A stretch of DNA of 64,000 nucleotides, taken from NCBI GenBank assembly GCA_017499595.2, contig CM039001.1:2914001-2978000 (forward strand), read 5' to 3'. The notes beneath the pieces are model-generated. The model made no database searches. It was not told the DNA's origin and saw nothing but the letters and a program-made list of their open reading frames with translations. The DNA is from Psilocybe cubensis (taxonomy: Eukaryota). The stretch's first letter is position 1. Each line of letters starts with the position of its first letter. Below are positions 10,844 through 41,548 of this stretch, piece after piece. The position numbers and the translations under genes were made by a program.

Positions 10844-12327
10844 TATGCTCACGTCACTGCCTACATTCCGAAAATGCCGTAATTTGATTTTTGTGTTGCT
10901 TTATGCACATGTACTTCATTGCTTGCTGCTTGTTTCAAAATGCCAAAGCCTAGAGGAATATCTTGCCAAGTATGGACAGTGGAAACAGTTAAAAACTCAC
11001 ACAAAAATGATATTTGAGCAGTTTTTAAGCTCATTGCGTATAGACAAGATGAGAAGCTCAGAGAGTTCAGACATGGTACTAGAGAACACTATTTTATTCA
11101 TGCGCAACACATTGATTTCACGTGAGTTCACAGATGCAATTAAAGCTGGAAATTCAGGCCAAGTAATTCTGGTTCTAAAAATATGGACATTGAGTTATTG
11201 AGGGAGCAGTCATACCAAATACGCATACAAAATGCTGCATCTTATCCACTCACTCAAAAAGGTGTGGCCAAAGCCAATTTGCAACATTGTCTTGAAAAAT
11301 TGGTTGCTAAATATAACCAGGAGCAACAATGGTTTTATTGAGGTTAATCTTGCCCAAGAACATCTAAACTACTAGATCAAGGTAAGCAGCGGCATTACAA
11401 TAATGTTATCTGTGTTACTCACAGCATTTTTGCAGACCGCATATAAGACCCATGGCTCCAATGCTTTATAGGAATGGATAGACACGCTTGCACCAACAAT
11501 TGAGGTCTTGAGAGGAATTACACAGAATTTTAATGATGTGATTGGAGCAAATCAGGGTTCAAGACATGCACCTCCAGACCTAACAAATAATATCTCATGT
11601 TTAATGGAAAGCCTTGAAGAACACCGGGTCTACCATTACACAAAGGGTCGTACTCTAGGTCAAAATACAGGTGGTACTATCAAGGATATTATTGCTGAGG
11701 GGATGCATATCCTTACAAAAGGAAAGAAAATACCACTCACAGACTATAACAAAGCCTTTCAAAAGCTCCAAAAGCAACAACAACTGTGGTCTATGGCTGA
11801 TCAAGCACTTCAACTATTCCCATCTACCCCACCTGATACAAAGCCTAATGTCAGAGTGCTTTCAACAACTCCATTCCACCCTCTCACACCCATTCAACCT
11901 ATTTCCAGTGCCCAGGAGTGCATATGCAAAGAGGAGACTATGGTGGATACACGTGGAGAACCTGAAGAGGAAGAAAAAACCAAATTTGAGAGGCTGTTAG
12001 ATGAAGTAGAGCAAGGAGAGAAAAACTTAACTTTACCTCACATTTTTGAGGAAGATGTTTCTTTTGATATGAATGAGGTCTTTGTTGATGAAGGAAAAGA
12101 TGAGGAGGAATTGAGCAAGAGTGAATACAACGACTAGTAGGTACATAATTGTGTTGAAGGAGGGGCAAGATAACATTGGTTTTACTATAACAACCATAGC
12201 GGTAGATCACGTTAATTCCACTAAGTCCGCTGTCACAAAAGTGTGACCCTGCCAAATAGTGTTCGTTTAGCCCAGCCGTTTCTGACAAAACTTTTCAGAC
12301 TTTGAAAATGAGATTAGTCAGAAACGG

Positions 12328-13173
12328 TAATCTTGGCTCCAGATGTTCAGGAGAGCTCTGGCGGAGAATAAAAGCAAAGTCAAAAATTCTGACAAAAACT
12401 GTTGCAAATTGCTCTCCATAACATCTGGTGCAATTGCGTCAGTAGAGATGCGGACAGCCCCTTTTGTCACATCAGTCACATTCTCACCTCCCTTTTTATT
12501 GCTCAATCAATGCTCCTCATACTTCCCGTTCTCCTTGTTAATATACAATTTACTCACCAATAATCACTCTTAGACTTACTGGATGACAATAAATACAATA
12601 TTATTTGATTTCACTGCAATCTAATTAAGCTAGCCTTATTTTGACGTCTTGTTGCATCCGCTCCTAACTGACAATTATTCAAGGAGTGTGCAATGTGAAC
12701 TCGCAGAGTAAGTACCCCGCTTGGTAATGCTGCAATATCAAATCTTTGCTTTCTGCCCTAATTCTACTGTCCCATTCAGCCTAAGTATATTAGATCTTCA
12801 CACATAACACTTGAGGTTGCCTGTACATGGGCTAGAGCCATAGAAGTCTTCCAGCAGAAATTTTATGACATTTTCAGTGGCAACTGGGCACTTTGCATAC
12901 TTGAGATTATAGATATTGTAAGATATAATATTTAAGCAAAGAGAACTGTTGTCCTTCAACAAAAAATCCTGGCTTAGACGGTGTCAAGTCGATGCATGAG
13001 CACAGCGTGATATGTCTGCATCTTTACTGATGCAATTAGACCAGACGTTATAGGGCACATCTCCCCAATCAAATTTTGCAGAATTTTTGACTCCAACTTT
13101 GATCTCCGCCTATTAGTCCCGGGCCTCTTGCAGGAGGGGAGATTGTGCCCTATAGCGGATGGGAACGAGACTA
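12328..13173 (-). mobile_element. Non-autonomous Academ-type element, family X copy 1 (846 bp)
   Basis: Ends TAATCTTGG...CGAGACTA; 9-bp TSD CAGAAACGG (12319-12327) / CAAAAACGG (13174-13182); reverse complement of 14269-15115. Confidence 0.8.
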
Positions 13174-13203
13174 CAAAAACGGCTGGGTACGAGCCTAATT
13201 ATC

Positions 13204-15122
13204 TAGTCTCTCGTAGACAGACCACGATACGTACATATGTGATCTGTTGCTTATCACGCCCCCCAAACCGGGGAAGAAATTTATTATGTAAAGTGCGGAC
13301 ATTGAATATCCGGTCCGGCCATGACGCGTCATTAGGACGCGTCGTCAACGCATTGTTTGTTGATTCCAGTTGCAGTGTGTATCCTAGCGTGTTATACAAG
13401 GCAATAACTGCGCAGCTCTTCCTTTAAAATCAAATATATAGGCCCATTACAGATTTTTAGGTAAACATTTACATCAGTAGAACTTCAATAGAACTTTTAC
13501 AACTCCATTGAATATACCTGCATAAATATGATTTAGTTTATATTGTTTCAAAACTTTGGCATGATAAGATATATAAGCCATGAAAGTCAAAAATTTCAGA
13601 AGAAATGCACCACTTCTTCTCTGTCCTGATGACAATAAATGTGAGCGGTACTTGCAGGTGGGTCTGCACTTATCACATGATTAACTTCTTGCAAGTGGGC
13701 AGTGGGTTAATTCTTGTTTTCCATGCTAGCACTATATAGGATGTTGGAGTTTGTCTGGTTCCTCTACTGCGTCACATGTTGTCCTCTTTCTTCACATGTC
13801 AACCCCTATTCGTGTTTACCTTTATTTACTTTCTCGCCAGTGTAGACACAGCGTTTCCTCGTCCTCACATATCTCAGTTGTTCATCCATCAGGACACTGA
13901 GGTATGTTGTTTTATGTTCTGGTTTACTTTACACAGCACTCATTCTCTTTACTCGTATTCTATAGTGAGATTCATCATCTATAGGTAGTGTCCACAATAT
14001 AGTTGTTCATCTATCAGGACACTGAGTGAGATTCATCATCTATAGACTCGAACATAGGATATATTCCAAAAGACTCCATGCCATAAGTTACAATTTACAT
14101 GGCTCATAAAGCATTAAATTATGGGATTAAAGCAGATACCAACTGTTTAAACGCGTTGAGAAGAGTTCGGGCGCGAGGGCCTATATTAGCGCGACGCGTT
14201 TCAAAGTCCGCACTTTACATAATCATTTTCTTCCCCGGTTTGGGGGGCGCGATAAGCACAGGACTACTTAGTCTCGTTCCCATCCGTTATAGGGCACGAT
14301 CTCCCCTCCTGCAAGAGGCCCGGGACTAATAGGCGGAGATCAAAGTCGGAGTCAAAAATTCTGCAAAATCTGATCGGGGAGATGTGCCCTATAACGTCTG
14401 GTGCAATTGCATCAGTAAAGATGCGGACATGTCACGCCGTGCTCACGCATCGACTTGACGCCGTCTAAGTCAGGATTTTTGGTCCAAGGACAACAGTTCT
14501 CTTCGTTTGAATATTATATCTTACCATATCTGTAATCTCAAGTATGTAAAGTGCCCAGTTGCGGCCGAAAATGTTATAAAATTTCCGTTGGAAGACTTCT
14601 ACGGCTGTAGCCCGTGTAGTATGTACAGGTACTAACCTCAAGTGTTAAGTGTGAGGATCTAATATACTTAGGCTGAATGGGACAGTAGAATTAGGGTAGA
14701 AAGCAAAGGTTTGATGTTACAGCATTACCAGGCCGGGTACTCACTCTGCGAGTTCACACTCCTTGAATAATTGTCAGTTAGAAGTGGATGCACCAAGACA
14801 TCAAAATAAGGCTAGCTTAATTGGATTGCACTGAAATCAAATAATATTGTATTTATTGTCATCCAGTAAGTCAAGAGTGATTATTAGTGAGTAAATTGTT
14901 TATTAACAAGGAGAACGGGGAGTATGAGGAGCATTGATTGAGCGATGAAAAGGGAGTGAGAGTGTGACTGATGTGACAACAGGGGCTGTCCGCATCTTTA
15001 CTGATGCAATTGCACCAGATGTTATGGAGAGCGATTTGCAACGGTTTTCGTCAGAATTTTTGACTCCGCTTTCATTCTCCGCCGGAGCTCTCCCGAACAT
15101 CTGGAGCCGAGATTAAGGACTA
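13204..15122. mobile_element. Non-autonomous Academ-type element Y (~1.06 kb once nested X copy 2 is removed)
   Basis: Ends TAGTCTC...AGGACTA; 9-bp TSD CTAATTATC at 13195-13203 and 15123-15131; subterminal inverted repeat ~13245-13305 / ~14200-14258. Confidence 0.7.
14269..15115 (+). mobile_element. Non-autonomous Academ-type element, family X copy 2 (847 bp)
   Basis: Ends TAGTCTCG...CGAGATTA; perfect 9-bp TSD AGGACTACT at 14260-14268 and 15116-15124. Confidence 0.85.
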
Positions 15123-20294: not shown

Positions 20295-21301
20295 TGTCGG
20301 CGACGTGGTTGAAGGACCAAAAGCAGCCGTATTTTGATTGCCCCGGCGGTGCGACCAAACAGGTGCCAACGAGTCGCGCCGCCCGCGGCCTATGGCTGCC
20401 TCTCTTTCCCCAATCCAACACTTTCAAGTTCAATCCTACGGACATTTTATTACTCTACACACGTTAATGGGGCTCTCCAACTTCATTCATTTTCGCGTTG
20501 GAGCTTTAAATTTGACGATGTATGCTGTCGACCCATGACCGTCATTTACATGAACAGGCTGCCTCTGACACAGACAACTGTCTAAAGACGACAACGGCGC
20601 GTCAACCATATTATCAGGGTCTACTGCGTTCAAGAGCATTTGGTTCGAGGTTTTGTGCTTAATAGGCGCGCTGTACAAATGCTGCTCGATTTTCTTGGTG
20701 TGCCAGTGCTTCTGACATCTGCAATCCACAGGACGTGTCGCAGATGATCTCGTCAAGGAATAACCTAGTCTTTAACCTCTATTGCTACGTTCGCCACAAC
20801 GCACTGGCGACTTTGGATGATCTATGGGTCTTGGAGGCTCCTATTCATCACCTATGTTGTTCATGTTGCCACGACAAATGTACCGTTCCAGTCTTGTCTT
20901 ACACCTCAACTATGCAACCTCAATGAATTCAAAGTTTACATCGTCATTCTAATCTTCTCGACCAGCACGTGCAATGGTCTGGGCCATTTCTTTGTCTGTC
21001 TTTGACGTGTTTAACGCGGTCCCAACGCCTCTCCTCGTGTCCATCGATAACCGGTATCTGATTTTCACCCGGTCAAAAAAGGCTACCAGATGTGATTATA
21101 GCGAGTAGTGATGCCTCGAGGCGTACACGCTGTTCTTATAGCGAGGTGCAAAAATTCAACGCTACATCTGTGGTTACCCAAATTTTGCGGAGGTTTGGGC
21201 TCAAAAGGTGCACAAAATGGCGGGGGAGTATAGGCAACAATACATTGTATTGAGCGATTCAGAAAATCTTCTGATATTCTCGAGCATCTCTACTTGATAA
21301 A

Positions 21302-22394
21302 ATGGCTTTCTCCTTCGGTGATATACCCAACTCTCTTTCTGGACAATTTTTTGACGATTTATCGTTCACCTATGCTGGTACGCCTACTTGATATTTTCGG
21401 ACCTTTTATTTTTTCTGACCATGATATCACAGACCGTGATTCTGGCTTGAACTTTCTCGGTCACGAGAGCGCGACACCTCCAGCTTCATCACATTACCTC
21501 GCCCCTTCTCCATCTGGTACCGACGCGTCTTTTTATGTTCCCCCTCGCCGTACTAGCACGCGTCATCCCGATCCAAAACATATCCCTCGCCCTCGCAACG
21601 CTTTCATCTTCTTCCGTTCATGGTACATCAACAATAACCGTGACTCCAAGGACGTGCAGCAGAACGAATTAAGCAAACAAGCCGGGAAAGCATGGAACAG
21701 TATGTCGGAAGAGGCGAAGAGACCGTTCATGCAACTGGCCGCTGCCGAGAAGGAGCACCACTATAACACGTACCCTGACTATGTCTACTCACCCAGCACG
21801 AAATCTGGTGGCAATCCAACTGGCTCGCAGAAGACCAAGGGGAAGAGAAGGTCACCAAGTGCATACGATGATATCGCTTCTCGTACGACATCCGATCCTT
21901 CAAAAGTAACATCAGCGTCGTGGTATCACTCTGGAGAGGTATGTTTGTATGTTTATATGTTAGTTAAACGCTGTTACTTATATTCTCGATAGGGTTTCTC
22001 CTTTGAACAAGGACCGCCTTCTCCATTCCATGCTCATCTTGATTCCGTTCCGAGCCAATTCGCGTACCAACAAAACGCTCACGACTTCATGCCATCGTAT
22101 ATGCCGACTCTTCCAAACACCTTCGATATGTTCAATCAAAGTTCAAATAGCATGTCATTGGATATTCCGGCTTCCGATCCTTCGGCATATTCTCGTTATT
22201 CGGGGCCGTCCTCTTTGACATGCGAAAACCCTTATCCTAGCACCGACTATCTGGCCTTGTTGGAGCATCCATTCTCAGAGGAGACCTATAATTGCGAAGA
22301 CATGATGCAACGTTGCATAGATGAAGTACTTGCTGCGACCTTTTTGGAATTTTCTGGTGGATATTACGGTCAGAACGGGTCCGCATTTAATTGA
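21302..22394 (+). CDS. MATA-type HMG-box transcription factor, paralog 1 (exons 21302-21377, 21433-21938, 21993-22394)
   Basis: HIPRPRNAFIFFRS...QQNELSKQAGKAWNSMSEEAKRPFMQLAAAEKEHHYNTYPDYVYSP; two GT-AG introns join the exons in frame. Confidence 0.9.
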
Positions 22395-25800: not shown

Positions 25801-28188
25801 TGATCCTGTTAAGCCAAACATTGATGCAGTAATTCCTAATCCTTCAAGGCACCATGAATCTCCACCTCGTGAAATTGCAGAGAATCAAATCCCAGAACCG
25901 CAACCAATGCGACGATCTCAACGTGATAAGCAACCAGCTGGAAGTATCAATCAAGAGTACTATAATACTGTCCAACGTCAAAAACATAATGAGCAACTAC
26001 GTGCCGAGTTAAATGCCCAAAAGCGACTGCAGACAAGACAGCAGCTAGATACTCCAGTCCAATCGCAAAGTCCATCCAATCCGACAGAAGACCCCAAAGA
26101 GCCATTGTGGGATATTGATGTTGGCCCCGAAGACAAAAATGGTGATCGACTGGTAGACTTCAATCTGAATCTTGCGTCAAACGAGGCACTCATGATGGCT
26201 GGACGAGCATTTGTCGAAAATGGCATTGATTTTGGAGGATACGGAATACTCGCCGTCAACCTCAGTCAACATGCGGCTCTGAAAGTCGGCGCACATGATA
26301 CAAATCCACGCACATACCAAGAGGCAGTAAACAGCGAACATGCAGCCGAATGGTACAAAGCTATGGCAGAGGAGATGAACAACCATAAAAACAATGGGAC
26401 TTGGACGCCAGTCTATTTGCCCGCAGGCGCGAAATCCATAGGCTCTCGTTGGCTATTTAAAGTCAAACACCTGCCCGATGGAGCAATTGACCGCTTCAAA
26501 GCGCGAGTCGTTGCACAAGGATATAGCCAACGCCCTGGCGTAGACTTTGATGAGACATTTGCGCCAACAGCTCGATGGCCAGCCGTGCGTGCAATCCTAG
26601 CAATTGCAGCGATTGAAGATATGCATCTCGAATCAGTAGACGTCACAGCAGCATTTCTCAATAGCAATGCAGATGCAGAACTGTACCTTCGTCTTCCAGA
26701 AGGTGCAGACCGCACCCTCCCATCAGGCACGGTTAAACAGCCTGGAGACGGTCCAATCGTTGGACGCCTCAATAAAGGAATGTACGGACTCAAACAGGGC
26801 GCCTATCTGTGGCACAAACGTCTCAATGAAGTCTTCATATCAATTGGATTTGTGCGTGTCGTCTCCGATCCATGCGTCTACATATATCTACGGGAAAACG
26901 TGCGAGTAATTATCCCAGTACACGTTGACGACATGACTATCGCATCAACAGACCACGATGCCATACTAAACGTGATAAATCAGCTACGAACTCACTTTAA
27001 ACTTCGACATCTTGGCCCAACAGTAGGCCTTCTTGGTGTTCGTATCATACGAGATCGGAAACAGCGATGGCTCACACTTGATCAATGTGCGTATAAAGTG
27101 GATGTATTGGCACGATTTGGAATGCTTGACTGCAATCCAGTCACTACACCAATGGATCCTAACCAAAAGCTACTCAAATCTGACGGCGCAACAACTGTTG
27201 AAGAAAAGGAGGCTATGGCAAAAATACCATATATTCAAGCGACGGGTGCACTGCTATATCTTGCCTTGTGCACACGGCCAGACATAGCATACACGGTGGG
27301 AGTACTGTGTCGCTTCAATTCAAACCCGGGATTAAAGCACTGGGCAGCAGTCAAACATTTACTTCGTTATATTCGAGGAACACTTGACTATCGTATTGAA
27401 TATTCAGCCGAAAAAGCTCTTCCTGGACCACAACTTTTCCGCACATACTCAGACGCAGACCATGGCGGAAACCTGGACAGTGGGAAATCAACATCAGGAT
27501 CCGTGATTATTCTAGCTGGAGGCGCCGTGGACTGGAGCAGCAAAGTCCAATCAATAGTTGCAATGTCAACTACAGAATCAGAGTTTGTTGCCGCAAGCGA
27601 AACCGGAAGGTCTTTATGTTGGATGCGCAACTTTCTTGCCGAGATTGGAACACCTCAATCAGTGCCGTCCGAACTGTTGCTGGATAACAAATCAGCTATA
27701 TCGGTCAGCAAGCACCCCGAACACATGGGAAAGCTCAAGCACCTCGATCGACATTATTTTTGGCTACGCGATGCTGTTTACAACGGAAAGATTACAACTA
27801 TATACATCCCAACTATTGAGATGATCGCGGATATACTCACCAAAGCCCTACCTCGAGACACAGTAGAAAAATTCAGACGGATGATGGGAATCATCGGGGA
27901 ATGGTCCAAGGATTCGATGGACAGCACTTAACACTCGGCTGGCTACCACAACCGGTGGGAGTGTTGAATATATAATGGGCTGTAGAGCCAGCCTCGTCAC
28001 GGTTCATCGGTACTATTCAAAATTACAAACTATGTACTAGGGTTAAGGTTAATCTACGTAGATACCTCGATCCTGGGTGAGGAACAGCTTTAGTCCTTAC
28101 CACTAAAGCTGATCCTCCGCCCAGGTATGTTTCAATGAGAATAGTCCTTACCACTAAAGCTGATCCTCCGCCCAGACCTTATTTAACA
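22840..28188 (+). mobile_element. Full-length Ty1/copia LTR retrotransposon
   Basis: 227-bp TG...CA LTRs at 22840-23066 and 27962-28188, identical by eye; 5-bp TSD CTACA (22835-22839, 28189-28193); PBS GGTTATGGGCCC at 23067; single gag-pol ORF. Confidence 0.98.
23300..27931 (+). CDS. Copia Gag-Pol polyprotein (Gag, CCHC knuckle, protease, integrase, RT, RNase H)
   Basis: CYICDGDHIMTAC; WNADTGATAHM; HRRMCH..CEAC; SDLKGP..NDEGGEF..NGVAER; KARVVAQGYSQRPGVDF; HVDDM; YSDADHGG..ADILTK; integrase lies before RT (copia order); first ATG at 23300. Confidence 0.97.
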   Translation: MSTSEDASVSRLPLSKLGVIKYNDWEKSMFARLMSLGVIGIVEGTEFAIPKPEPQTTTTAAGSTTTMPTAEQISTYNSYVNRCYKAAGEIYMWLDDGNKIHVDEIRTKPKEMWDRLKEIHSKSAPNSRFNSLNDLLSIRLKDDESLTEMCTRVQGAMQKVRSLRPTTGYDINMLDDELVIMAMICALPREEYSSFISSVLLLSKLDKESVLEAFRIEETQRQSAKDHLDAIAAAAARQIKCYICDGDHIMTACPKYAKVRAIGKDTDNSNSSSASGYRGKRSGNRGRGRGAGSANASSAASGKTQASSATDSNAIEEGCDGPQVHGKSAVCLSDSSRRQQSTDYSWNADTGATAHMTPHRHWFLSDYKPWRVPIRVANGQTVYSVGMGSVKFQPTTRSRARMRPVIITGVLHVPSLANNLLSVLTLTAEHDFKVHISKHQLAFVRRKTLIFTASIDTTKTAYLNGHVVTSSPGAAKFSHAAQATIVDRTLIHRRMCHLGKDRVEQIIKKELASDLNLGSDLPMPDICEACISGKQHRHPFQQNTERATGLLDRIFSDLKGPMPVRSMNKYLYFAVFVDDASRYMEAYELAKKSDLFAAFKEFKALVEKQTGKKIRCFHNDEGGEFTSNDLLNFCKNEGIRVEFTTRATPQSNGVAERTIRTISESITAMNAEANLPESFWNYALNVYRHVHNRAPTSALPNDVTPYELFKGRKPKIGHLRVYGCRAYVLVGRDKRKSLQGHTVKGIFVGYPTNHIGWMIYNPLTKETIISRDVIFDENVFPGLSNPKNSPIDPLPLPTDFPDVDNTDIAPYDSDNDNSFPPVPALVPEAVGVQLDPVKPNIDAVIPNPSRHHESPPREIAENQIPEPQPMRRSQRDKQPAGSINQEYYNTVQRQKHNEQLRAELNAQKRLQTRQQLDTPVQSQSPSNPTEDPKEPLWDIDVGPEDKNGDRLVDFNLNLASNEALMMAGRAFVENGIDFGGYGILAVNLSQHAALKVGAHDTNPRTYQEAVNSEHAAEWYKAMAEEMNNHKNNGTWTPVYLPAGAKSIGSRWLFKVKHLPDGAIDRFKARVVAQGYSQRPGVDFDETFAPTARWPAVRAILAIAAIEDMHLESVDVTAAFLNSNADAELYLRLPEGADRTLPSGTVKQPGDGPIVGRLNKGMYGLKQGAYLWHKRLNEVFISIGFVRVVSDPCVYIYLRENVRVIIPVHVDDMTIASTDHDAILNVINQLRTHFKLRHLGPTVGLLGVRIIRDRKQRWLTLDQCAYKVDVLARFGMLDCNPVTTPMDPNQKLLKSDGATTVEEKEAMAKIPYIQATGALLYLALCTRPDIAYTVGVLCRFNSNPGLKHWAAVKHLLRYIRGTLDYRIEYSAEKALPGPQLFRTYSDADHGGNLDSGKSTSGSVIILAGGAVDWSSKVQSIVAMSTTESEFVAASETGRSLCWMRNFLAEIGTPQSVPSELLLDNKSAISVSKHPEHMGKLKHLDRHYFWLRDAVYNGKITTIYIPTIEMIADILTKALPRDTVEKFRRMMGIIGEWSKDSMDST

Positions 28189-28342
28189 CTACAGCCCGCT
28201 GGATGCGCAATTATCAACTCATAAATCACCAAGACAACTAATTGCCATTGCTGTCTGCTTCATATCCATCCAAAAAGTCTGCTCAGCGATTCTAGCCCCT
28301 GGTATTGATACAAACGAATCGACTGGCTGGTTCAATACGGAC

Positions 28343-29128
28343 AGGACCCGGGAAGCTCCCCTAAGGCCTTGTCCGGCCTCGACCCCGAATTTGGCCCTCA
28401 AATCCGCGAGATTTGGGGCCTCAAATCCGCGAAACCGGACAGACCTCCTCAGGGTCCTTCCTAATTAAGAAATTTTCTCCCTGCGGGGCAGCACATTTCT
28501 CCACGTCGTTTTTAACAATATTTTGCTTTAAACAGCGTCTCGCAGTCATAATACACATTGAGAGAAAGAGATAAGTACTAATTACAATGTCTTCCTACCA
28601 GGAATACGTATTTTGAGTAGTGACTCGTTGGCTTTACCAATGGCCTTCTGAATATTTGATCTAGCAAACTTTCTCCACAAGAAAGCTCCCTGAGGACTAA
28701 GAGTTTTCTTTGAGTGATATTCACCATGAAGTGCACAAGATCCAAGGTTGTATATAACGTCGCTAACTCGTGCATGAGTGTGGAGGTAGTATTTCCTTCG
28801 TGGTGGATGTGGTATACAAGTGAAGTCCGGCACGGGGGTTGATGCATCAGCATCATCGTCGTCTGAGTCATGTCCGTCCATAAATTCCTCATCTGGTAAC
28901 TAGATAAACTGATAAAGGATGTATGTGAATGAATTTGTGTAAATAAAAGAAAATCTGACTGCCGCTGGCCACCTCAGGCTGTGGACCCGGCCTCAAATCC
29001 GCAGGCCCCGGACAATGGTTGGCCTGCGGCGCCCTCAAATCCGCGAAAAACGGACAGGGATTTGGCCTTTTTTCGGCCTCAAATCCGCCAAACCCCGGAC
29101 AAGGCCTTAGGGGAGCTTCCCGGGTCCT
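28343..29128. mobile_element. MITE / non-autonomous TIR transposon (786 bp) with an 8-bp TSD
   Basis: Perfect 34-bp TIR AGGACCCGGGAAGCTCCCCTAAGGCCTTGTCCGG; TSD ATACGGAC at 28335-28342 and 29129-29136; repeated subterminal motif CCTCAAATCCGC at both ends. Confidence 0.9.
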
Positions 29129-29934
29129 ATACGGACATACTTTCTTTGGTCAGGATTTTGGACAACTGGAATTTACAGTGCCACTTCCGACTCTGTTCAT
29201 TTTTTCCCGAATAATTCCGAACGTCAACGGCGCTCCTGGAACATCGAGTCACGATGGTGGATAAAAACACAATTGCCCTATCAATTTTCTCAATTCTGCT
29301 CGGTGGTGTTGGCTTTACTTCATGACCATAACTGTATGCTCTCTTGTCTTTCTCACTCAAAAAATTATCTACCCACTCAGCAGATGCTCATTGACGATTG
29401 CGGCAGGTTGATTTTACACCAGGCCCTACATTTTCTTGATAACCAAAACTTTCGGGACTCGATGTCTCAAATTGTACCTTCTTCGTATTGATCACGTCTG
29501 CCAAATGAATAAATTTCTCTCTTCTCAAAGAAGTCGACCTCTAATATCTCAGGCCAATTTGGTCAGTCTAAAGCTATTCCTCACCGGTTCACACGTGGGG
29601 CATGACGACGTCCTTTCAGCTCTAGGCCATTTCTTTGTCCTCCCTCACTCGGGTCCTACACCTCCCCTCGTGTCCATCGATAACCGATATCTGATTTTCA
29701 CCCGGTCAAAAAAGGCTACCAGATGTGATTATAGCGAGTAGTGATGCCTCGAGGCGTACACGCTGTTCTTATAGCGAGGTGCAAAAATTCAACGCTACAT
29801 CTGTGGTTACCCAAATTTTGCGGAGGTTTGGGCTCAAAAGGTGCACAGAATGGCGGGGGAGTATAGGCAACAAGACATCGTATTGAGAAATTGGGAAAAT
29901 CTTCTGATATTCTCGGGCACATTTACTTGATAAG

Positions 29935-30969
29935 ATGTCTTTCTCCTTCGGTGGTACACCCAACTCTCTCTCTGGACAAATTTTTGACGATTTATCGTTC
30001 ACTTATGCTGGTATGCCTATGATATTTTCGGATGTATTATTTCTCTGACCATGATATCATAGATCGTGATACTGCCTTGAACTTTCCGGGTCACGAGGGC
30101 GCGACACCTTCACTTTCCCCATATTCTCTTGCCTCTTCAGGTATCGACGCGTCCTTTTCCGTCCCTCCTCGTCGCCCAAGCAGCCGTCGTCGCGAACCAG
30201 GACACATCCCTCGCCCTCGTAATGCTTTTATTTTCTTCCGCTCATGGTACATCAACAATATGCATGAGTCCAAGGATGTGAAGCAGAACGAATTGAGCAA
30301 ACAGGCCGGCGAGATATGGAAACACATGTCGGTTGGGGAGAAGAAGCCTTTCTTGCAATATGCCGCTATCGAAAAAGAGCGACACTATGCTATGTTCCCT
30401 GACTACGTCTACTCCCCCAACACGACGACTGCTACCAACAAGAAAGCATCCAAATACAAAGTCTCTCGTGCTACCTCAAGTTCGGTGTCACCGGAGGCGT
30501 CGTCGACTTCGTGGAACCACATTGGCGAGGTCTGTGAAAACTTGTACAAATTTTATCCCCTGTTTCTTATGTTACATCGCAGGTATTCCATTCAGTCGGA
30601 TCCGAAACTCTTTCACCATTCCACGACCATATTGAGCACGTCTCCAATCAACTGGAGTATCAGCAATACACGCAGAACACGTCGTCTGAATGTTTACCTA
30701 CCCTTCCACACTCCTGGTTCAATCAGGGATTGAACGCTGATCTACCATCGATGACTACTCCATTATCTCCAAATCCATCGTCATACCCTCTCTCCGACAC
30801 ACCGTTACCCTTGACATATGATAATCCTTACCTTGGTTTTCTGGACTACACATTCCCTGACGTGTGTTCAGAGGCAGACGGTCTGATGCAACAGTTCATG
30901 GATGACTCGATGGAATGGTTAGAGCTCACCAACCCTGTTTCGGGGTTTTCTGCGAACTTTGGGCAATAG
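29935..30969 (+). CDS. MATA-type HMG-box transcription factor, paralog 2 (3 exons; intron 2 at 30530-30582)
   Basis: MSFSFGGTPNSLSGQIFDDLSFTYA|DRD...HIPRPRNAFIFFRSWY...EKERHYAMFPDYVYSP; same intron positions as paralog 1. Confidence 0.9.
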
Positions 30970-31483
30970 TATTCTACCTCCATGTTTCCACTCTCCCGTT
31001 AATAGATCATAGGTGATGGTCCAGCTCAACATCGATAGGGATTACTAAATAAGATAATACACGTATATCGATTGGCAGATAAGTCACGAAAAGATCAAGA
31101 ACGATATCGATCCCTTTTTCTCTGGAAGCAGAACCTTCGGTGTGAATGCAAGCTCGAGTCACTGCTTGCAATCGGTGCTGTCACTGCTGCGGTGATCTAT
31201 CATACCCGGATTAGGAAGGTCATTTGCCTTGCGATTCCCGTTATGGAAATTATATGAGGAGCCCCTGCAACTTGCGTTCGGCTGAAACACTCGTTCCTCC
31301 TGTTATTTCCCATCGTCAGCCTCGCCGAATGTAATCTATCACTAGATTTTCCCGCCAAATGTCAGAATAGCCGAGGTGCCACTCGAGAAGCTCGTACATC
31401 GAGGTGTGTGTGTAGGTGCACACAACACGTGCGATAGAACAACGAAAACAAAAGATAACAAACACCACACAACCCAGTTCCTC

Positions 31484-31490
31484 TATAAAA
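31484..31490 (+). promoter_or_regulatory. Putative TATA box of the structured ncRNA candidate (mirror at 38869-38875)
   Basis: TATAAAA followed by a pyrimidine tract, ~30 nt upstream of the first hairpin; no credible ORF downstream. Confidence 0.45.
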
Positions 31491-31516
31491 CCCCCCTTCT
31501 TTTCTCCAGAATCCCC

Positions 31517-32286
31517 ATCGCTTCTTGGTTTCCTACCACCATCATATACCTTCAACCAAGGCGGTCAACATACCACCTCCTCACGGCATACTATTACTTT
31601 TAACATCTCAACATCGCTCGGCGTCTAATAGACATACCCCGCCCTTCTACAGGCACGCGACGACGATGGCGACATAATCTGATACCCGCCCTGCACAAAC
31701 AGCATGCGGCGGGTGACTAGGTATCCTCTTCCATCTTTCAACCCTAATACCTGACCACACCGCTTGGTGTTGGCATAGAGCAGGACACTTTGGGCCTCCC
31801 ACCTTTCGTCGATGCACTCCCATCAATCCGCGGTCTGGCCTAACGACTACAAGGTAGCGCGAGGTAGACGTGTGATCTCCGCCGCGAGGCGTTGTACTCC
31901 GATGTCAGTTGTTCCGGGCAGTGAAGGGTAAATTGTTGCTTCACACGTCCATGATACATGCTCGGACGCAACGTTCTCAAGGAGGTCTGGACGGACGAGG
32001 TACTAGATTTCTTCTTTAGGCGCTCACCGGATGGGAGTTAGCTTAAAGGGGGGTCTAGTCGGAGCGGGCCTACTTGCGAAGGCGCTTAGACCGGCACCCG
32101 ATGGGGTGCTCCTTCGTCAAGTTGCGGTCTGTCTTTTTCCGGAGGTGGCACAAAGACTAGTAAGACTCGCCTAGCAGCGCGGAGTCCCTGCTAGCGAGGT
32201 ACGTGAAAATCTTCTGTGACGTGCTTAAACGACTGGCGGTGCCCAGCATGGGTGGACTGCTCGAAGAGAGTATTGGTTGATCAGAG
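31517..32286 (+). ncRNA. Structured non-coding RNA candidate, possibly telomerase RNA (copy A)
   Basis: No ORF of 60 aa or more in 31630-32630; many stems (31517-31565, 31681-31725, 31755-31772, 31921-31944, 31946-31968, 32003-32058, 32094-32109, 32131-32157, 32166-32198); CAACCCTAA at 31739-31747; GTGAGT donor at 32287. Confidence 0.4.
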
Positions 32287-33678
32287 GTGAGTCCTCACCC
32301 TCCTCATCATCAAACTTTGTTTTGATGCAATTCATTCAAGGTCGAGGTTATCTTGCAAGGCGCAACATACCCTCATTGTTAACTATTTTTTCATCATTGT
32401 TTTGTTCCACTTTAAATTGACCGTTCTATCCTTTAGAGTTGCTGCCTGATCAACATGATTTGAAGCCGCTGGCATTGCTATTCGCAAAGCGGATTCTAGG
32501 GGGCGCGACTTCTTGAACTGTTGATTATTTCCGTTTTCTTATCATCCGGAACGACGTCAATTGACCTATCTATTATTCAGAGAAAATCAAGACTCGCAGT
32601 CAATACAAAATTTATATTCCTCGACACGGCGCCCTAACCCATGATTAACTTGCATGTTGCCAACGTCATGCATAACATATACAGATCGTCCCAGTCCATT
32701 GCGATGATATTTCCTACCGTATAATATGCTCCCATCCAAACGAAACACGCATCCAAGGGCAGCCGTGCGGTCCAGTCGGGATATGAAAATTCAGTACGCC
32801 TATTGCACTGAAGGCTTATATGGGTTCGTTTGTTTATGATGTCTACACATCGTACTAACATAGACCTGAATTCTGTAGCTCAACTTAGGCATTAATATTC
32901 TTAATGCACGGCCAACGGCCTCTTCTTGTGCTTCTCAGTTTCGGTTTTTCTCTAATTTGTTTCTACTTTTGCTATCATTTTTTTCCTCTTATCATGCACT
33001 GCATGTTATTCTACTTTGCTTTACTCGCGTATGCCACAAGGCACTGCATCTCTAGTTTTTTCTCATTTCAATCCTCTTAGCCGATCTTGATTCCAGTCCG
33101 CTAGCTATATATCTCGCGAACATACATTTTATTATATGATACAAAATGATTCCTCAAGGCCTTTACTACAGACGCTCTGTTTATTGACATGCATTATAAT
33201 ATCTTTGAGATTTCTAATGAAATATCCCAAAAATATAGTCTGAATGTTTCGAATTAAAAGAATGGCCTGAGGAGGTTTTCAGATGTCTTCGAAGTTCAAA
33301 ATGCAGACAGGCCTCCACACTGGCTTAGCGCGCAATGATGTGCCGCGGCGGGAACTAGCCGCTAGGACAAGTCAAGCGCCGCCAACCCGACTTGTTCTAG
33401 TCACTCTTGAATGCTGATCTGGTTGTGATAGCTTTAATCTTTTTATGGGTATCCATCTCCCATATCATGCTTAGGTTGGTAGCTTGTATCTGCGCACGCT
33501 TACTTGAATTCCGTGGTGGGGCCAAGTGTGCTTGAAGAGATCAGATATCGCAGTAATTAAATTTGGCTTCTTTGCCGGACTCCGTCATGTTCCCATCCAC
33601 GAAATCTTTTCAGTCAGCGACTCTATTCCCGAACACTGCGATTATCTAGAAACTACATCTGGTTGACTATACATCGTT

Positions 33679-35390
33679 ATGGCTGCGACAACTCTCTTGC
33701 TCTCTCCAACTACACCATCTGACTATTTCCGTATAATCTCTCCAACGTTATCTGTACCAACAGACCCTCAAATATCCACCCCAGTGGGGCTCTTAGCATG
33801 CCAACGTACTGATAACGTGTCATTTTATCCTTGCAGCATGACTAACAGTAAAAGTATACAGGTGACCCACTCCTGCGTACCCTTGAGACCACCGTCGTCA
33901 CGGCATACGTCTCTCAGCCTCCTCCTCCACAAGCATCAGCAGGGAAAAAGACCAAGAAAGCCGTACTCGCCCCGGACCTCCCCAACGAACCTCTGCTGCA
34001 TGTTCTCCTGCACGATACCGTCATATTCCCGGAGGGCGGAGGGCAGCCCACCGACACCGGAATCATCGAGACGACTGCTGATGGGAAGGCCTGGGAGGTC
34101 GTGCAGGCGAAGAGACATGGTGGGCATGCGGTGCACTATGTGAAGCTCCCTACCGGAGTGGACGCAGATGCAGGGTTGCTTGCATTCCAGCCTGGTGCGA
34201 AAGTTACCGTATCTCTGGGGGACAATGGGTACGAGAGACGATATGATCATGTATGTCTCTCTGGATGACTCGACCACGCAGGTAATGCTAATTTACTATG
34301 TGGCTTTTTGTAGATGTCTATGCACACCTCACAGCACCTCCTTTCGGCCCTACTGGAGACGCGCTTGAACTTACCGACACTCTCGTGGTCTCTGACTAGC
34401 TACCCCAGCCCATGCTATGTTGAAGTCCCGCGGGGTATGACACAAGAAGAGATCGCATCTATCCAGGCCGAAGCCAATCGTCTCGTTTTTGAAGGCCGTA
34501 AGGTGCACGTCGAGGTCGAGGAGCTTGATGTGGCACAAGAGCAAGCAAAACCCGTACAAAAGTTAGAGAGCGGGCGAGCGGTGGGTAAAGGACTTCCAGA
34601 GGACTACACGGGGGGAGTCAAACGCGTGGTGATCATTGACGGCGTCGACAAAAATCCGTGAGTGGTCCATACATTCTTTGTTCCATTACCCAACAATTAA
34701 CCACCGTATACATTCTTGCTTTCCAGATGCTGTGGAACGCACCTCCCCACGATTCACAACCTCCAGCTCTTCCTTGTCCCACACACCGAAGCCCTCGCAC
34801 GCTCATCCACCACGACCGCGCGTCTGTACTTCCTCTGCGGCCCGCGCCTCATCGCCCACCTCACATCCACGCACACCCTTCTCGCATCTACCGCGGCAAT
34901 TATGAGCTGCGGCCCTCCCCTCGTACCCGAACGCGTCAGCCAGGTCGTCGACGAGCGCAAAAAGGCGGAGAAACGTGTCTCGGACACCGAGCAGGAGCTT
35001 GCAGAACACATTGCACGGGACCTGGCAACAAAAATCAGCACCTCTGAAGGCTCACCTTTCAAGTTCCATCTGCACCGAACGGATGATACGAGTAATGCGC
35101 TTGGGTTCCTGTCCTCAATTGCATTCGCCCTGACCGCCGCTGCCGAACCTTCCCGACCGTACGTGGTCGTGCTGAGCTCGTCGCCGACTACTCAGACAGC
35201 CAGCTCTGTTTCGACTGTTTTGGTGCTTGGAACCACCGATTCGAGTGTGAAGGCGGCGGGCGACGGGCTGAAATCGAAGCTGGGTGTCAAGGGTGGGGGT
35301 AAAGGTCCTCGATGGAGCGGCAAGTTTACCGGGGTGTGGAAAGCAGGGAAGGAGGATGTCGTGGTGCAAGAGGTCCTTGATAGCATCTGA
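33679..35390 (+). CDS. AlaX-family alanyl-tRNA editing protein (AARSD1/AlaXp-like), multi-exon
   Basis: LHDTVIFPEGGGQPTDTG, HTSQHLLSA (HxxxH) and CCGTH (CxxxH) zinc motifs; C-terminal GVKGGGKG. Confidence 0.9.
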
Positions 35391-35625
35391 AAAGCACTCA
35401 GAAGGATAAAACCAAGGTAAAAAGAATAACAATAGTAAATTATACAGGTTGTTTACAAGGTTGTGCGTGAAGTATGAGGATATGAATATTGGTAAAAGGA
35501 TACAGTGAACGAGCCATTGAGGACTCGTTAATATGGAAAGCTTTCCGCGGAATATCATGTTGTATGCTTGGAGGGTGACCGTGGTGTATCCACAAAATGA
35601 AAGATATGTCCATGATAAAGAAACT

Positions 35626-36697
35626 CTACTTTGGTTGTTCTTGTTCGTTTGCTGTCGAGACAGCAATGTGCCCTCCCTCTTGCTCGTTCTCGAGGGCGTC
35701 ATCGTCCTCGTGCACGGAAACGCTAACCTCCGTTTCCAGCGCTGAGCAGTAGCAGGGCAATAACCACAATTAATTTCACCACCCGAGTAGCAGATCGGCG
35801 GCGGGCCCACGTACCGGCGTTATTACCCTCTCCGTCATCGCCGTCAATAGCAATCTCGCCTTCGGAGGAGGACATCGACGAGGATTCGCCATCCGTGAGT
35901 CCCCACTCGGAGACTCTGTCCTCCTCCTCTTCCGCGTCCTCCATCTCTTCGTCCTCCACACCAATGTCTTCGGCAAGACCGACTGCAGCATCGTTCACTG
36001 ACTCATCTTCCCACATCTCGTCGAAGTCGAGGTCCATCTGCTGGACGGGGAAGTCGCCATCGGTTTCGGCATCGGTGTCGGTGAAGCCGTCAACGTCAAT
36101 GTAAGCATCCTCGTCGTCGTCTTCGAAGTCGTCGGGATTGGGAATGTATTCTCCTCCGTCGGAGGATTCGTCGTCTGATTCGATCGGCTGTCCGATGTCG
36201 AGGAAGGTATGACGGCAGGTAGGGCAGCTTCCGTGCTGGAATAGAAAGGTAGGTGAATAATGATTGAACAGAGCATAGAAAGAGAAGGACGTACCTGACT
36301 ACGTATCCATTCTACTAGACTGTGAGCGGGTTCGTGCCAGCCCGAGATCAGTAGAAGAAAGGTTGGTGACAGATCGAGCACAAAGGACTCACTCTCTGCG
36401 ACAGAAGATGTGCCCACAACCCTCGAGTTTGGTGACTCCTCCCAACTCTGCCTCATCCTTTCCTTCATCCTTCCCTTCAGAGTCCTTCGCCGTCTCCGCT
36501 TCTTGCTCCTCGAATATGCTTGCAAATGGCATCAGACATATCGGGCATGGCTCCTCTAGGACTAGACCCTGAGAGTCTTTCTGCACAGAAGGTAGAGAGG
36601 CGATCATAGCATTAATAGCCCGCGTACGATGCTGCCGGATATTCAGCGCGTCCTGCACAAGCTCGTACGCAGCTACCGCGGTCATATCCATGTTCAT
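35626..36697 (-). CDS. RING-finger protein (probable E3 ligase) with an acidic C-terminus
   Basis: CPICLMPF...CGHIFCRR..LVEWIRSQHGSCPTCR assembled across introns; D/E-rich tail; start codon uncertain. Confidence 0.8.
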
Positions 36698-38072
36698 GTT
36701 TCTCCGCAGACGCGGTGCCGCCGTGTCCCTATTAATAATACAATGAAGAAGCCTCGTTCCTGGCGGTGGAGGACAGCAGACTGTCGTTGGCCGATTATAC
36801 GAGTGCCAAGTCCCCAAGAGCTGGGGAGCGCAGCCGCAGCGGGGGGTGGAGAGACGCTGAGGCGAGTGGTGGGTGGGAGAAGGAACAAACAATTGTTCAA
36901 TTTCAAATGATTCAGCTTTACTTCGATCAACAACGCGTACCGCGCGTTGCTGATTTCTCATCACGTGCGTTGGCATTTTACCCACGAGGACTTCGCGTCG
37001 ACAACAGATGTCGTTTACACGACGTTGAAAAAGAATGGATGGATGAGGTACCTGACCATGATATCCACCACTTGAGAATCAGGGACACTACCAATGAGCT
37101 GGTCATTTAAGTACTGCTGCACGTACTCATCAGCTTCGACAGTTGCTTCCGAAAACGTAAAATTCAACAAGACTATACAGTAAAGACACTGAGAAGTCGT
37201 TTTGTATCTATCATGTGTGGAATCTTCGTGAGACATATAGCTGGCGGACTGGAATCAAGATAGTCTAGACGATTAAAGTGAGGAGAAACTAGAGATGCGA
37301 TGCCTTTTGGCGTACGCGAGTAAAGCAAATTAGAATAACATGGAGTGCATGATAAGAGGAAAGAGAAAATAAGCAAATTTTTCAAGGGCAAGGATATCAA
37401 AAGTATAAACGAATAATAGAAAAACCGAAACTGAGAAGCACAACAAGAGGCTGTTGGCCGTGCATTAAGAATATTAATGCCTGAACTGAGCTATAGAAAT
37501 TGTGTTAGCACGAATGGATGTGTGGACATAATAAACAAACGAACCCATATACTAAGCCTTCAGTGCAATAGGTGGACTGAATTTTCATATCCCGACTAGA
37601 CGGCGAGGCTGCTTTTGAATGCGTGTTTCGTTTGGATGACAGCCTAGTACACCGCAGGAATTATCATCGCAGTGGACTGGGAATATCTGTACGTGTTGGC
37701 AACATGCAAGTTAATCATGGGTTAGGGCGCCGTGTCGAGGAATATAAATTTTGTATTGACTGCGAGTCTTGATTTTCTCTGAATAATAGATAGGTCAATT
37801 GACGTCGTTCCGGATGATAAGAAAACGGAAATAATCAACAGTTCAAGAAGTCGCGCCCCCTAGAATCCGCTTTGCGAATAGCAATGCCAGCGGCTTCAAA
37901 TCATGTTGATCAGGCAGCAACTCTAAAGGATAGAACGGTCAATTTAAAGTGGAACAAAACAATGACGAAAAAATAGTTAACAATGAGGGTATGTTGCGCC
38001 TTGCAAGATAACCTCGACCTTGAATGAATGGCATCAAAACAAAGTTTGATGATGAGGAGGATGAGGACTCAC

Positions 38073-38842
38073 CTCTGATCAACCAATACTCTCTTCGAGC
38101 AGTCCACCCATGCTGGGCACCGCCAGTCGTTTAAGCACGTCACAGAAGATTTTCACGTACCTCGCTAGCAGGGACTCCGCGCTGCTAGGCGAGTCTTACT
38201 AGTCTTTGTGCCACCTCCGGAAAAAGACAGACCGCAACTTGACGAAGGAGCACCCCATCGGGTGCCGGTCTAAGCGCCTTCGCAAGTAGGCCCGCTCCGA
38301 CTAGACCCCCCTTTAAGCTAACTCCCATCCGGTGAGCGCCTAAAGAAGAAATCTAGTACCTCGTCCGTCCAGACCTCCTTGAGAACGTTGCGTCCGAGCA
38401 TGTATCATGGACGTGTGAAGCAACAATTTACCCTTCACTGCCCGGAACAACTGACATCGGAGTACAACGCCTCGCGGCGGAGATCACACGTCTACCTCGC
38501 GCTACCTTGTAGTCGTTAGGCCAGACCGCGGATTGATGGGAGTGCATCGACGAAAGGTGGGAGGCCCAAAGTGTCCTGCTCTATGCCAACACCAAGCGGT
38601 GTGGTCAGGTATTAGGGTTGAAAGATGGAAGAGGATACCTAGTCACCCGCCGCATGCTGTTTGTGCAGGGCGGGTATCAGATTATGTCGCCATCGTCGTC
38701 GCGTGCCTGTAGAAGGGCGGGGTATGTCTATTAGACGCCGAGCGATGTTGAGATGTTAAAAGTGATAGTATGCCGTGAGGAGGTGGCATGTTGACCGCCT
38801 TGGTTGAAGGTATATGATGGTGGTAGGAAACCAAGAAGCGAT
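38073..38842 (-). ncRNA. Structured non-coding RNA candidate, possibly telomerase RNA (copy B)
   Basis: Reverse complement of 31517-32286, core identical by eye; TTAGGGTTG at 38612-38620. Confidence 0.4.
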
Positions 38843-39390
38843 GGGGATTCTGGAGAAAAGAAGGGGGTTTTTATAGAGGATCTGGGTTGTGTGGTGTTTG
38901 TTATCTTTTGTTTTCGTTGTTCTATCGCACGTGTTGTGTGCACCTACACACACACCTCGATGTACGAGCTTCTCGAGTGGCACCTCGGCTATTCTGACAT
39001 TTGGCGGGAAAATCTAGTGATAGATTACATTCGGCGAGGCTGACGATGGGAAATAACAGGAGGAACGAGTGTTTCAGCCGAACGCAAGTTGCAGGGGCTC
39101 CTCATATAATTTCCATAACGGGAATCGCAAGGCAAATGACCTTCCTAATCCGGGTATGATAGATCACCGCAGCAGTGACAGCACCGAATTGCAAGCAGTG
39201 ACTCGACCTTGCATTCACACCGAAGGTTCTGCTTCCAGAGAAAAAGGGATCGATATCGTTCTTGATCTTTTCGTGACTTATCCGCCAATCGATATACGTG
39301 TATAATCTTATTTAGTAATCCCTATCGATGTTGAGCTGGACCATCACCTATGATCTATTAACGGGAGAGTGGAAACATGGAGGTAGAATA

Positions 39391-40433
39391 CTATTGCCCA
39401 AAGTTCGTAGAAAACCCCGAAACAGGGTTGGTGAGCTCTAACCATTCCATCGAGTCATCCATGAACTGTTGCATCAGACCGTCTGCCTCTGAACACACGT
39501 CAGGGAATGTGTAGTCCAGAAAACCAAGGTAAGGATTATCATATGTCAAGGGTAACGGTGTGTCGGAGAGAGGGTATGACGATGGATTTGGAGATAATGG
39601 AGTAGTCATCGATGGTAGATCAGCGTTCAATCCCTGATTGAACCAGGAGTGTGGAAGGGTAGGTAAACATTCAGGCGACGTGTTCTGCGTGTATTGCTGA
39701 TACTCCAGTTGATTGGAGACGTGCTCAATATGGTTGTTGAATGGTGCAAGAGGCTCATATCCATCCGAATAGAATACCTGCGATTCAACATAAGAAACCG
39801 GCGATAAAATTGAACTACTTTTCACAGACCTCGCCAATGTGGTTCCACGAAGTCGACGACGCCTCCGGTGACACCGAACTGGAGGTAGCGCGAGAGACTT
39901 TGCACTTGGGTGCCTTCTTGTTAGTTGCCGTGGTCGTGTTGGGGGAGTAGACGTAGTCAGGGAACATGGCATAGTGTCGCTCTTTTTCGATAGCGGCAAA
40001 TTGCAAGAAAGGTTTCTTCTCTTCAACGGACATGTTTTTCCATATTTCGCCGGCCTGTTTGCTCAATTCGTTCTGCTTCACATCCTTGGACTCATGCATA
40101 TTGTTGATGTACCATGAGCGGAAGAAAATAAAAGCATTACGAGGGCGAGGGATGTGTCCTGGTTCGCGACGACGGCTGCTTGGGCGACGAGGAGGGACGG
40201 AAAAGGACGCATCGATACCACAAGTACCGGAAGAGGCAAGAGAATATTGGGAAAGTGAAGGTATCGCGCCCTCGTGACCCAGCAAGCTCAAGGTAGCATC
40301 ACGGTCTATGATATCATGGTCAGAGAAATAATACATCCGAAAATATCATAGGCGTACCAGCATAAGTGAACGATAGGTCGTCAAAAAATTGTTCAGAGAG
40401 AGAGTTGGGTGTACCACCGAAGGAGAAAGACAT
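39391..40433 (-). CDS. MATA-type HMG-box transcription factor, paralog 3
   Basis: HIPRPRNAFIFFRSWYINNMHESKDVKQNELSKQAGEIWKNMSVEEKKPF; close paralog of 29935-30969 with the same exon structure. Confidence 0.9.
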
Positions 40434-41548
40434 TTTATCAAGTAAATGTGCTCGAGAATATCAGAAGATTTTCTGAATTGCTCAATACGATGTATTGCTG
40501 CCTATACTCCCCCGCCATTTTGTGCACCTTTTGAGCCCAAACCTCCGCAAAATTTGGGTAACCACAGATGTAGCGTTGAATTTTTGCACCTCGCTATAAG
40601 AACAGCGTGTACGCCTCGAGGCATCACTACTCGCTATAATCACATCTGGTAGCCTTTTTTGACCGAGTGAAAATCAGATATCGGTTATCGATGCACACGA
40701 GGGGAGGCGAGTTGGTAGCCGAGGTAGAATAAAGAAAGGTCTGGCCAGAGAGCAATGGAGGCTTTCTTTGAAATTGCACGTGAAGGGTCGCGCTCACATG
40801 CTTTTGTCATTGGCTGTCAAAGGGTATGGATTGAATTGAATACATATAAAGCAACGTAGACATGAGCACAGCGGGTCGTCCAACACAGAAGTAAGAAGAC
40901 GAAGAATGTCTTAAACGATGGGCCTCTTGCGTCTGAGATAAGATTATTTAATTTGTTTGGTTTGCCAGTAGCTAAGGGAGATGAAAGAACATCAACACAA
41001 TACCGAGGTAGGTCGATGTGTGTTGTAGCAGATCATATTCCACCCCAATGCGGTCGTCGTTTGTGTTGGCGGTGCATCGTACATCGGATCATTCTGGACT
41101 TGGTGAACCTGTTCCATTGTGGATGGGTATTAGCTGGGTAATAGCTACACCAACGCTCAAGTCGGTTTGTGCAGGGTGGACGGCCCTACTATCCGCCAAA
41201 TACGAGTTCGTAGTAGTGAATTCCATATCCGGTACGAAAGTTATTCAAGTAAATAGGGCTTCGAATGAGGAAATGTAACGAATGCCATGCTATTCATAGG
41301 ATGCGGTAAGGGGTGAAACTGGAAGAAGTGTAATAGAAAGAGTGATAGCAAATGAAAGGAATTGACGTGTTTTTCGGCAATGTCCGATCAAATTACCTTA
41401 TCCAGTCACTGACGAGCATTAGATTTCCAGGTCACAGTCCTGTGCAATATCCGTTGCAGTCTTAATTCTCTAACTCGGCTTTCTATTGCACAGCTCATCT
41501 GGTTTTCTCAGGACCAGGGATTAATTCGTCTATTTCGTTCTAACCTGG

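Follow-up and report, generated by a model that had tools for sequence, protein, structure and literature searches.

The DNA analysed here is a stretch of 64,000 nucleotides (nt) from Psilocybe cubensis (assembly GCA_017499595.2, contig CM039001.1, positions 2,914,001 to 2,978,000 of the forward strand), hereafter called the window and numbered from its first letter. Our subject is a non-coding unit downstream of a TATAAAA at 31484, which an original prediction, made from the sequence, had put forward as a candidate telomerase RNA or other novel non-coding RNA (ncRNA) present in two copies. The unit lies in a large inverted duplication with arms at ~29661-33077 and ~37267-40707, of which the parts 31172-32664 and 37695-39187 are near-identical on comparison of the arms. 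Each arm carries an HMG-box gene followed by the non-coding unit, on the same strand and ~500 nt further 3′ in both copies, and the two arms face inward onto two convergent unique genes, called AlaX-like and RING-like below. The stretch that had been singled out is the long first exon of a plus-strand spliced transcript with five exons and four short GT..AG introns.

A spliced non-coding transcript

Five public runs contain the stretch, and positions 28000-37200 of the window were compared with the contigs of four of them (X1 to X4). The contigs of X1 and X2 skip intervals of 52-76 nt, bounded by GT..AG or CT..AC, in the HMG-box, AlaX-like and RING-like genes as well as in the non-coding unit. 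None of these joints is present in X3 or X4, which are DNA-type, genome-sized runs with 0 spliced joints. Hence, X1 and X2 were treated as complementary DNA (cDNA).

All four joints of the unit are GT..AG on the plus strand in contigs of X1 and X2 (the first was tabulated as 32284>32339 with a cut of +2). The original prediction had let the unit end at 32286, in front of an AG|GTGAGT. That motif is indeed present, with its GT at 32287, but the contigs join 32286 to 32341 and continue through three more introns; the GTGAGT is thus an ordinary intron donor, beyond which the RNA goes on. Intron 3 is sometimes retained, since an X1 contig with a depth of 553.9 reads position 32572 within it. At the other end of the unit, record 3 of X1, an RNA-type contig, covers 31249-31736 and so takes in DNA upstream of the predicted TATAAAA as well, which is found where it was placed. 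Some transcription therefore also begins further upstream or runs on from the HMG-box gene. Downstream, towards the AlaX-like gene, neither X1 nor X2 covers the bin 33219-33525. Summed contig depth, which cannot rank genes, is ~600-1000 over the unit and ~30-38 over the AlaX-like and RING-like genes in X1, and ~65-79 and 60-80, respectively, in X2.

The unit is as poor in reading frames as had been predicted. The longest stop-to-stop frame, on the minus strand at 31650-31904, has 85 codons, and in the spliced RNA no frame that begins with ATG is longer than 58 codons. Being transcribed, spliced, longer than 200 nt and without a plausible coding frame, the unit has the properties by which a long non-coding RNA (lncRNA) is recognized. 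A search of all 4227 Rfam families, including those of telomerase RNA, returned 0 matches at the gathering score in the whole window, and 0 matches at E up to 10 over 30500-33500; the family match that the original prediction wished to see checked is therefore absent at these thresholds. Rfam is not known to include a model of a basidiomycete telomerase RNA.

Table 1. Features of the unit, its second copy and the adjoining HMG-box genes
Feature	Position	Strand	Basis and remarks
TATAAAA, then pyrimidine-rich tract; possible core promoter	31484-31490	+	sequence
Exon 1, copy 1	31249-32286	+	X1 records 3 and 4, X2 record 8; 5′ limit is a lower bound; invariant core from 31596
Stable hairpin, the template-boundary helix of the original prediction	31677-31722	+	predicted fold
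AACCCTAA, complementary to 1.33 TTAGGG repeats	31740-31747	+	sequence; unpaired in predicted fold
Intron 1, 54 nt, GT..AG	32287-32340	+	fully spliced; joint 32286>32341 in 3 contigs each of X1 and X2, 0 in X3 and X4
Exon 2, 37 nt	32341-32377	+	identical in both copies
Intron 2, 59 nt, GT..AG	32378-32436	+	spliced joint; arm difference 32393 inside
Exon 3, 83 nt	32437-32519	+	identical in both copies
Intron 3, 61 nt, GT..AG	32520-32580	+	joint 32519>32581; also seen retained
Exon 4	32581-32823	+	first 81 nt (to 32661) identical in the copies, then a 12-nt indel and many substitutions
Second telomere-like tract, CCCTAACCC	32632-32640	+	sequence; inside exon 4
Intron 4, 55 nt, GT..AG	32824-32878	+	TACTAAC branch-type motif; joint 32822>32878, cut +1
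Exon 5	32879-33218	+	contig cover; 33218 is the end of the last covered bin, a provisional 3′ edge
Second copy of the whole unit	37179-39187	-	93.7% identity over 2029 nt; exon 1 at 38073-39110; AACCCTAA at 38612-38619
HMG-box gene	30023-30969	+	upstream of copy 1; Pfam HMG_box, E 5.3e-12; introns spliced in X1 and X2
HMG-box paralogue	39391-40345	-	upstream of copy 2; arms 94-97% alike here

Two details of the splice sites may be added. Inside exon 1, at 32199-32204, GAG|GTACGT may provide an alternative 5′ splice site (GTACGT at 32199); two contigs of RNA type (record 4 of X1, record 8 of X2) stop at 32202, while those of DNA type continue to 32281. The branch-site-to-3′-splice-site ends of introns 2 and 3 (32415-32438 and 32559-32582; AATTGACC...AGAG) are 79% alike, a likeness that hints at an internal duplication of an intron-exon module.

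Some cDNA-type contigs of X1 and X2 contain exon 1 and exon 2 and then leave the sequence of the window after 32367, with loose ends at 32367-32377. A 15-nt motif from this alternative continuation is not found in the window, where its 1 hit with 2 mismatches was judged to be chance. In the DNA runs, contig depth over the core of the unit is ~3x that over the unique centre between the arms (71 vs 25.8, and 69.4 vs 22.6). Both the alternative continuation and the raised DNA depth suggest that the unit has a further copy, be it at another place in the genome or in the other haplotype; no third copy was found within the 64,000 nt of the window.

Probable constraint on the exons and what the RNA may do

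Alignment of the arms gives 0 differences over 31596-32297, a core of 702 nt, and thereby bears out the undifferentiated core that had been seen by eye at ~31600-32297. The substitutions noted on either side of it are real as well: 31478, 31491, 31572 and 31595 upstream, and 32298, 32329 and 32393 just after the donor site. Over 30700-32661 (~1960 nt) the arms differ at only 11 positions; they diverge by 3-6% in the HMG-box part and by more than 10% beyond 32661. The palindrome shows that either gene conversion or selection keeps 1.5 kb identical next to HMG-box genes that have diverged by 3-6%. Introns 1 to 3 keep the same GT and AG in the second copy, intron 4 aligns poorly, and the likeness between the two units fades at ~33167.

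What distinguishes the block from 31596 to 32661 is where its differences fall. It holds 3 arm differences, of which 32298 and 32329 are in intron 1 and the third is in intron 2. Given that introns make up 174 of the 1066 nt, the chance of such an all-intronic placement is ~0.004. The invariant exonic sequence amounts to ~890 nt, made up of the exon 1 core, the whole of exons 2 and 3 and the initial 81 nt of exon 4; within the block, the exons downstream of exon 1 are as invariant as exon 1 itself. A comparison between strains points the same way. Of 946 positions of the unit compared with the X1 strain, 4 differ, and of 599 in the core, none does, versus 22 of 1015 in the exons of the AlaX-like gene and 12 of 421 in those of the RING-like gene (34 of 1436 together; Fisher p = 8.6e-5 for the unit and 1e-5 for the core against these neighbouring exons). 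Three of the four unit differences of X1 are the letters of the other arm. Beyond 32661, the second copy and the other strain both diverge strongly.

Could the identity of the copies be a matter of the palindrome rather than of the RNA? Under this explanation the unit would be transcribed without an RNA function, its copies would be kept identical by gene conversion from arm to arm, and the transcript would be a by-product, for example of HMG-box read-through. In its favour, the tract of 11 differences runs upstream past the TATA box into the 3′ portion of the HMG-box gene, several other inverted duplications are present in the window, and RNA-type contigs also cover the DNA between the HMG-box gene and the TATA box. 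However, conversion between arms leaves unexplained why the core is identical in a related strain that differs by 2.2-2.9% in neighbouring coding exons, and why the three arm differences in the block are placed in introns only. We consider a functionless transcript unlikely. Because gene conversion explains neither the identity between strains nor the intron-only differences, purifying selection on the exons is the favoured explanation of the low divergence, and probably the cause of it.

It is very unlikely that the unit is a stable RNA derived by processing from the long 3′ portion of the HMG-box transcript, in the manner described for the telomerase RNA (TER) of Ustilago maydis. By this analogy, the unit would belong to the gene behind which it lies on the same strand in both copies, and indeed, in X1 as in X2, no depth bin in the interval from that gene to the unit is without cover. 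Nevertheless, a TATAAAA with a pyrimidine-rich tract stands at 31484 in front of the unit, the third HMG-box paralogue of the window (~21000-21800) has no such unit downstream, and contigs cannot show one molecule that spans both gene and unit.

An mRNA for one or more very short peptides, in which constraint would act on a small reading frame, is a still poorer prospect. The transcript does have ATG frames of 39, 47 and 58 codons, but the invariant block is far longer than any of them, several short frames lie 5′ of each candidate, and a 1-nt deletion at 32169 in the X2 strain falls in the 47-codon frame. Downstream of the TATA box, the frames that the first ATGs begin have 3, 16 and 39 codons. 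The 85-codon minus-strand frame has no Pfam match and no relative in a collection of 5.8 billion proteins, in a search that covered lengths of 46-149 residues and in which the plus-strand ATG frames were not included.

We are thus led, with some confidence but no more than that, to regard the unit as a duplicated, spliced, multi-exon lncRNA gene of the RNA polymerase II type that acts in trans via its own sequence or structure. The observations above show that the unit is transcribed and spliced from the plus strand, lacks a coding frame, is duplicated and has diverged little. As for its history, a segment with an HMG-box gene and the lncRNA gene was duplicated and inverted around the convergent AlaX-like and RING-like genes. 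As for its action, the RNA would serve in trans, as a regulator or scaffold that works by its sequence or structure, and the act of transcription would not be its sole mode of action.

Several points weigh against this lncRNA reading. The RNA label of X1 and X2 was a guess, and their assignment as cDNA rests on the spliced joints; contigs, moreover, show neither RNA ends nor RNA level, nor RNA forms without a tail. The evidence for constraint comes from copies and strains of one species, and in X2 the contrast with neighbouring exons is weaker and not significant (4/494 vs 40/1939, p = 0.086). Gene conversion between arms could by itself account for the identity of the copies, and the low-divergence tract at ~30700-32661 takes in non-transcribed or upstream DNA. 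In predicted folding, the whole of exon 1 from 31520 to 32286 is modestly better than its shuffles (plus-strand z -2.05, equalled by 2 of 20; minus-strand z +0.37), and five local stretches other than the hairpin of Table 1 fold no better than shuffles (z -0.77 to +0.79). Finally, a metagenome scan that used the translated 85-codon minus-strand frame as a degenerate probe yielded no orthologue in another species. The scan gave 358 pattern-matching stretches, of which 1 passed tblastn (L001); this locus was rejected as spurious, being on a G+C-rich contig without nucleotide similarity to the unit (best 22 nt at 82%, E 0.4).

Regarding structure in the RNA, it should also be noted that the X2 strain lacks one base at 32169, a loss that could, depending on which base it was, remove the single bulged C of a hairpin at 32164-32197 and perfect its stem. 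This is the sole structure-compatible change seen.

The neighbourhood has features of its own. The AlaX-like gene weakly matches the C-terminal part of a model of class II alanyl-tRNA synthetases, scoring 27.6 bits where the cut-off is 30.3; the RING-like gene owes its name to the original prediction, and a Pfam scan of its two largest exons found no match. Single contigs (X1 record 5 and X2 record 9) span exons of both the plus-strand AlaX-like and the minus-strand RING-like gene over 34727-36895. Given that GT..AG and CT..AC joints share one contig, the 3′ ends of the two genes appear to overlap. A third, more diverged HMG-box paralogue at 20999-21812, in direct orientation to arm 1, has 92% and 76% identity to 29632-30436; no non-coding unit was found downstream of it. 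Other inverted duplications lie at 3012-5879, 9299-10845 and 12328-15115 (170-530 nt, 85-98% identity, short spacers), and to judge from such repeats, palindromic duplications seem to arise readily in this region.

The telomerase RNA question

The more specific part of the original prediction was that the unit may encode a telomerase RNA. In such an account, exon 1 would be released by cleavage at the 32287 splice site, or the spliced RNA would itself be the active form, with AACCCUAA (31740-31747) as the template and the hairpin at 31677-31722 as its boundary. The tracts on which the proposal was built, CAACCCTAA at 31739-31747 and CCCTAACCC at 32632-32640, are both present.

The hairpin is a point in its favour. 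Positions 31676-31730 fold at -20.5 kcal/mol, where shuffles average -12.15 (z -3.52) and none of 200 reaches that stability; it is the sole local structure that clearly beats chance. The prediction of a stem-loop at 31681-31725 was therefore sound, whereas its description as two nested stems was not. The GATACC and ACCCGCC pairs share three bases, so that they form one interrupted stem, predicted to have 5 outer pairs and ~8 inner pairs. The hairpin ends 17 nt before the 8-mer complementary to TTAGGGTT, which is unpaired in the predicted fold; a predicted helix thus lies 5′ of the template-like tract, as a template boundary would. A second telomere-like 9-mer is present in exon 4 of the same RNA, and the unit is non-coding, constrained and about the size of fungal telomerase RNAs. 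Furthermore, there is a precedent among basidiomycetes, since the U. maydis TER is described as arising from a spliced, mRNA-like precursor (PMC9564094), and our literature search turned up no described agaricomycete telomerase RNA.

The template match itself is at chance level, in line with the caution given with the original prediction that an 8-mer can match by chance. AACCCTAA occurs 4 times in the window where 1.59 are expected, and 11 of 100 shuffles reach 4; telomere-type 8-mers in all six permutations number 10, compared with 11.7 expected, and CCCTAACCC is likewise at chance frequency. The window contains no telomere array, as no telomere-type 10-mer was found in it. Moreover, the supposed template may not be constant. 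In the otherwise unbroken core, the contigs of each of the four runs either stop at 31736 and resume at 31745 or begin at 31709 with 2-3 other letters (3 in X2 and 2 in X4), which suggests, as an unverified possibility, a two-letter variant within 31737-31744, the 5′ half of AACCCTAA, in some copy or haplotype. Such a variant, if real, would lie inside the supposed template.

The other hallmarks were also sought. P6.1 is described as a 4-bp stem with a 5-nt NUNGN loop in the three-way junction of CR4/5 (PMC3592445), and as conserved in ascomycete and Ustilago telomerase RNAs in the accounts of PMC3592445 and PMC9564094. A search for such a hairpin gave 0 matches in unspliced 31172-33260, where shuffles have a mean of 2.2 and 10% of them give none, and 0 matches in the spliced RNA of 31480-32823. 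A relaxed search gave 10 hits, compared with 10.2 expected. The nearest approach is a junction-like fold at 32046-32115, whose short arm pairs 7 bp around a loop of 4 nt; it does not beat shuffles (z -0.41). An Sm-type site, A-U(3-6)-G, has 0 matches in 31480-32340. These results agree with the failure of the original prediction to make out a CR4/5 or Sm site by eye; as for the pseudoknot, the folding method used here predicts none by design.

Splicing is a further difficulty. The donor at 32287 is a canonical GTGAGT, its intron is fully spliced, three more introns come after it, and the downstream exons are equally invariant; complete splicing is read here from contigs, which a cleaved, tail-less fraction would escape. 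The gene is also present in at least two copies, and no Rfam family matches, those of telomerase RNA included. With two defining features failing, namely P6.1 and the Sm site with first-step-only splicing, and with a template match at chance level, the telomerase RNA reading is a long shot, and we think it extremely improbable. The same very faint chance attaches to its fullest form, namely a telomerase RNA gene, the first one from a mushroom-forming, agaricomycete-type fungus, with a spliced mRNA-like precursor behind an HMG-box gene, two identical palindromic copies, AACCCUAA as template, the hairpin at 31677-31722 as its boundary and a CR4/5 departing from the canonical P6.1. Of the two possibilities originally offered, the unit is thus an ncRNA in two copies, transcribed, spliced and without a long frame or Rfam family, and the telomerase RNA assignment finds no support in the tests made. 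Even so, such a low-probability candidate is worth cheap testing, because no mushroom telomerase RNA was found described in the literature search.

Comparison with known fungal RNAs

The nearest telomerase RNA for comparison is the U. maydis TER (UmTER), which is given as 1,291 nt long and as derived from an mRNA-like, spliced and polyadenylated precursor in PMC9564094. Like UmTER as portrayed there, the present unit is a basidiomycete ncRNA that lies 3′ of a protein-coding gene on the same strand, gives a spliced mRNA-like transcript and has a template-like tract related to UAACCCUAA. In the same account, the template of UmTER has 9 nt, its fold includes a pseudoknot and a CR4/5 domain with P6.1, and AUUUUU lies close to its 3′ end; in the unit, by contrast, the match is only 8 nt, and P6.1 and an Sm-type site were not found in the intervals searched. 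UmTER sits behind Emi1 and the unit behind an HMG-box gene, and the 3′ end of UmTER is reported in that source without a 5′ splice site.

With Schizosaccharomyces pombe TER1 and the TERs of filamentous ascomycetes, as these are described in PMC9564094 and PMC3592445, the unit shares a structured non-coding exon bounded on its 3′ side by a 5′ splice site. In those RNAs the spliceosome is said to form the 3′ end, with an Sm site beside the 5′ splice site and the first step of splicing only. Unlike these RNAs, the unit has an intron that is completely spliced, with four exons after it, and has neither an Sm site by the donor nor a P6.1.

The unit is closer to the spliced, polyadenylated lncRNAs of fungi. 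Catalogues of basidiomycete lncRNAs include those for brown-rot fungi (PMC6525899) and for Schizophyllum commune (PMC9645281); a literature search for lncRNAs beside HMG-box genes in mushrooms gave nothing specific. If the lncRNA reading is correct, the unit would be a well-defined, strongly constrained spliced fungal lncRNA with clean exon boundaries, present in two palindromic copies by HMG-box transcription-factor genes, and would lend itself well to studying the role of sequence-constrained lncRNAs in fungi. Like other fungal lncRNAs, it is intergenic, transcribed from one strand and interrupted by short GT..AG introns, one of which is retained, and it has neither a long reading frame nor a match to a curated RNA family. 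It differs from them in that its invariant block, at ~890 exonic nt, is unusually long, and in that it exists as two near-identical palindromic copies, each tied to an HMG-box paralogue.

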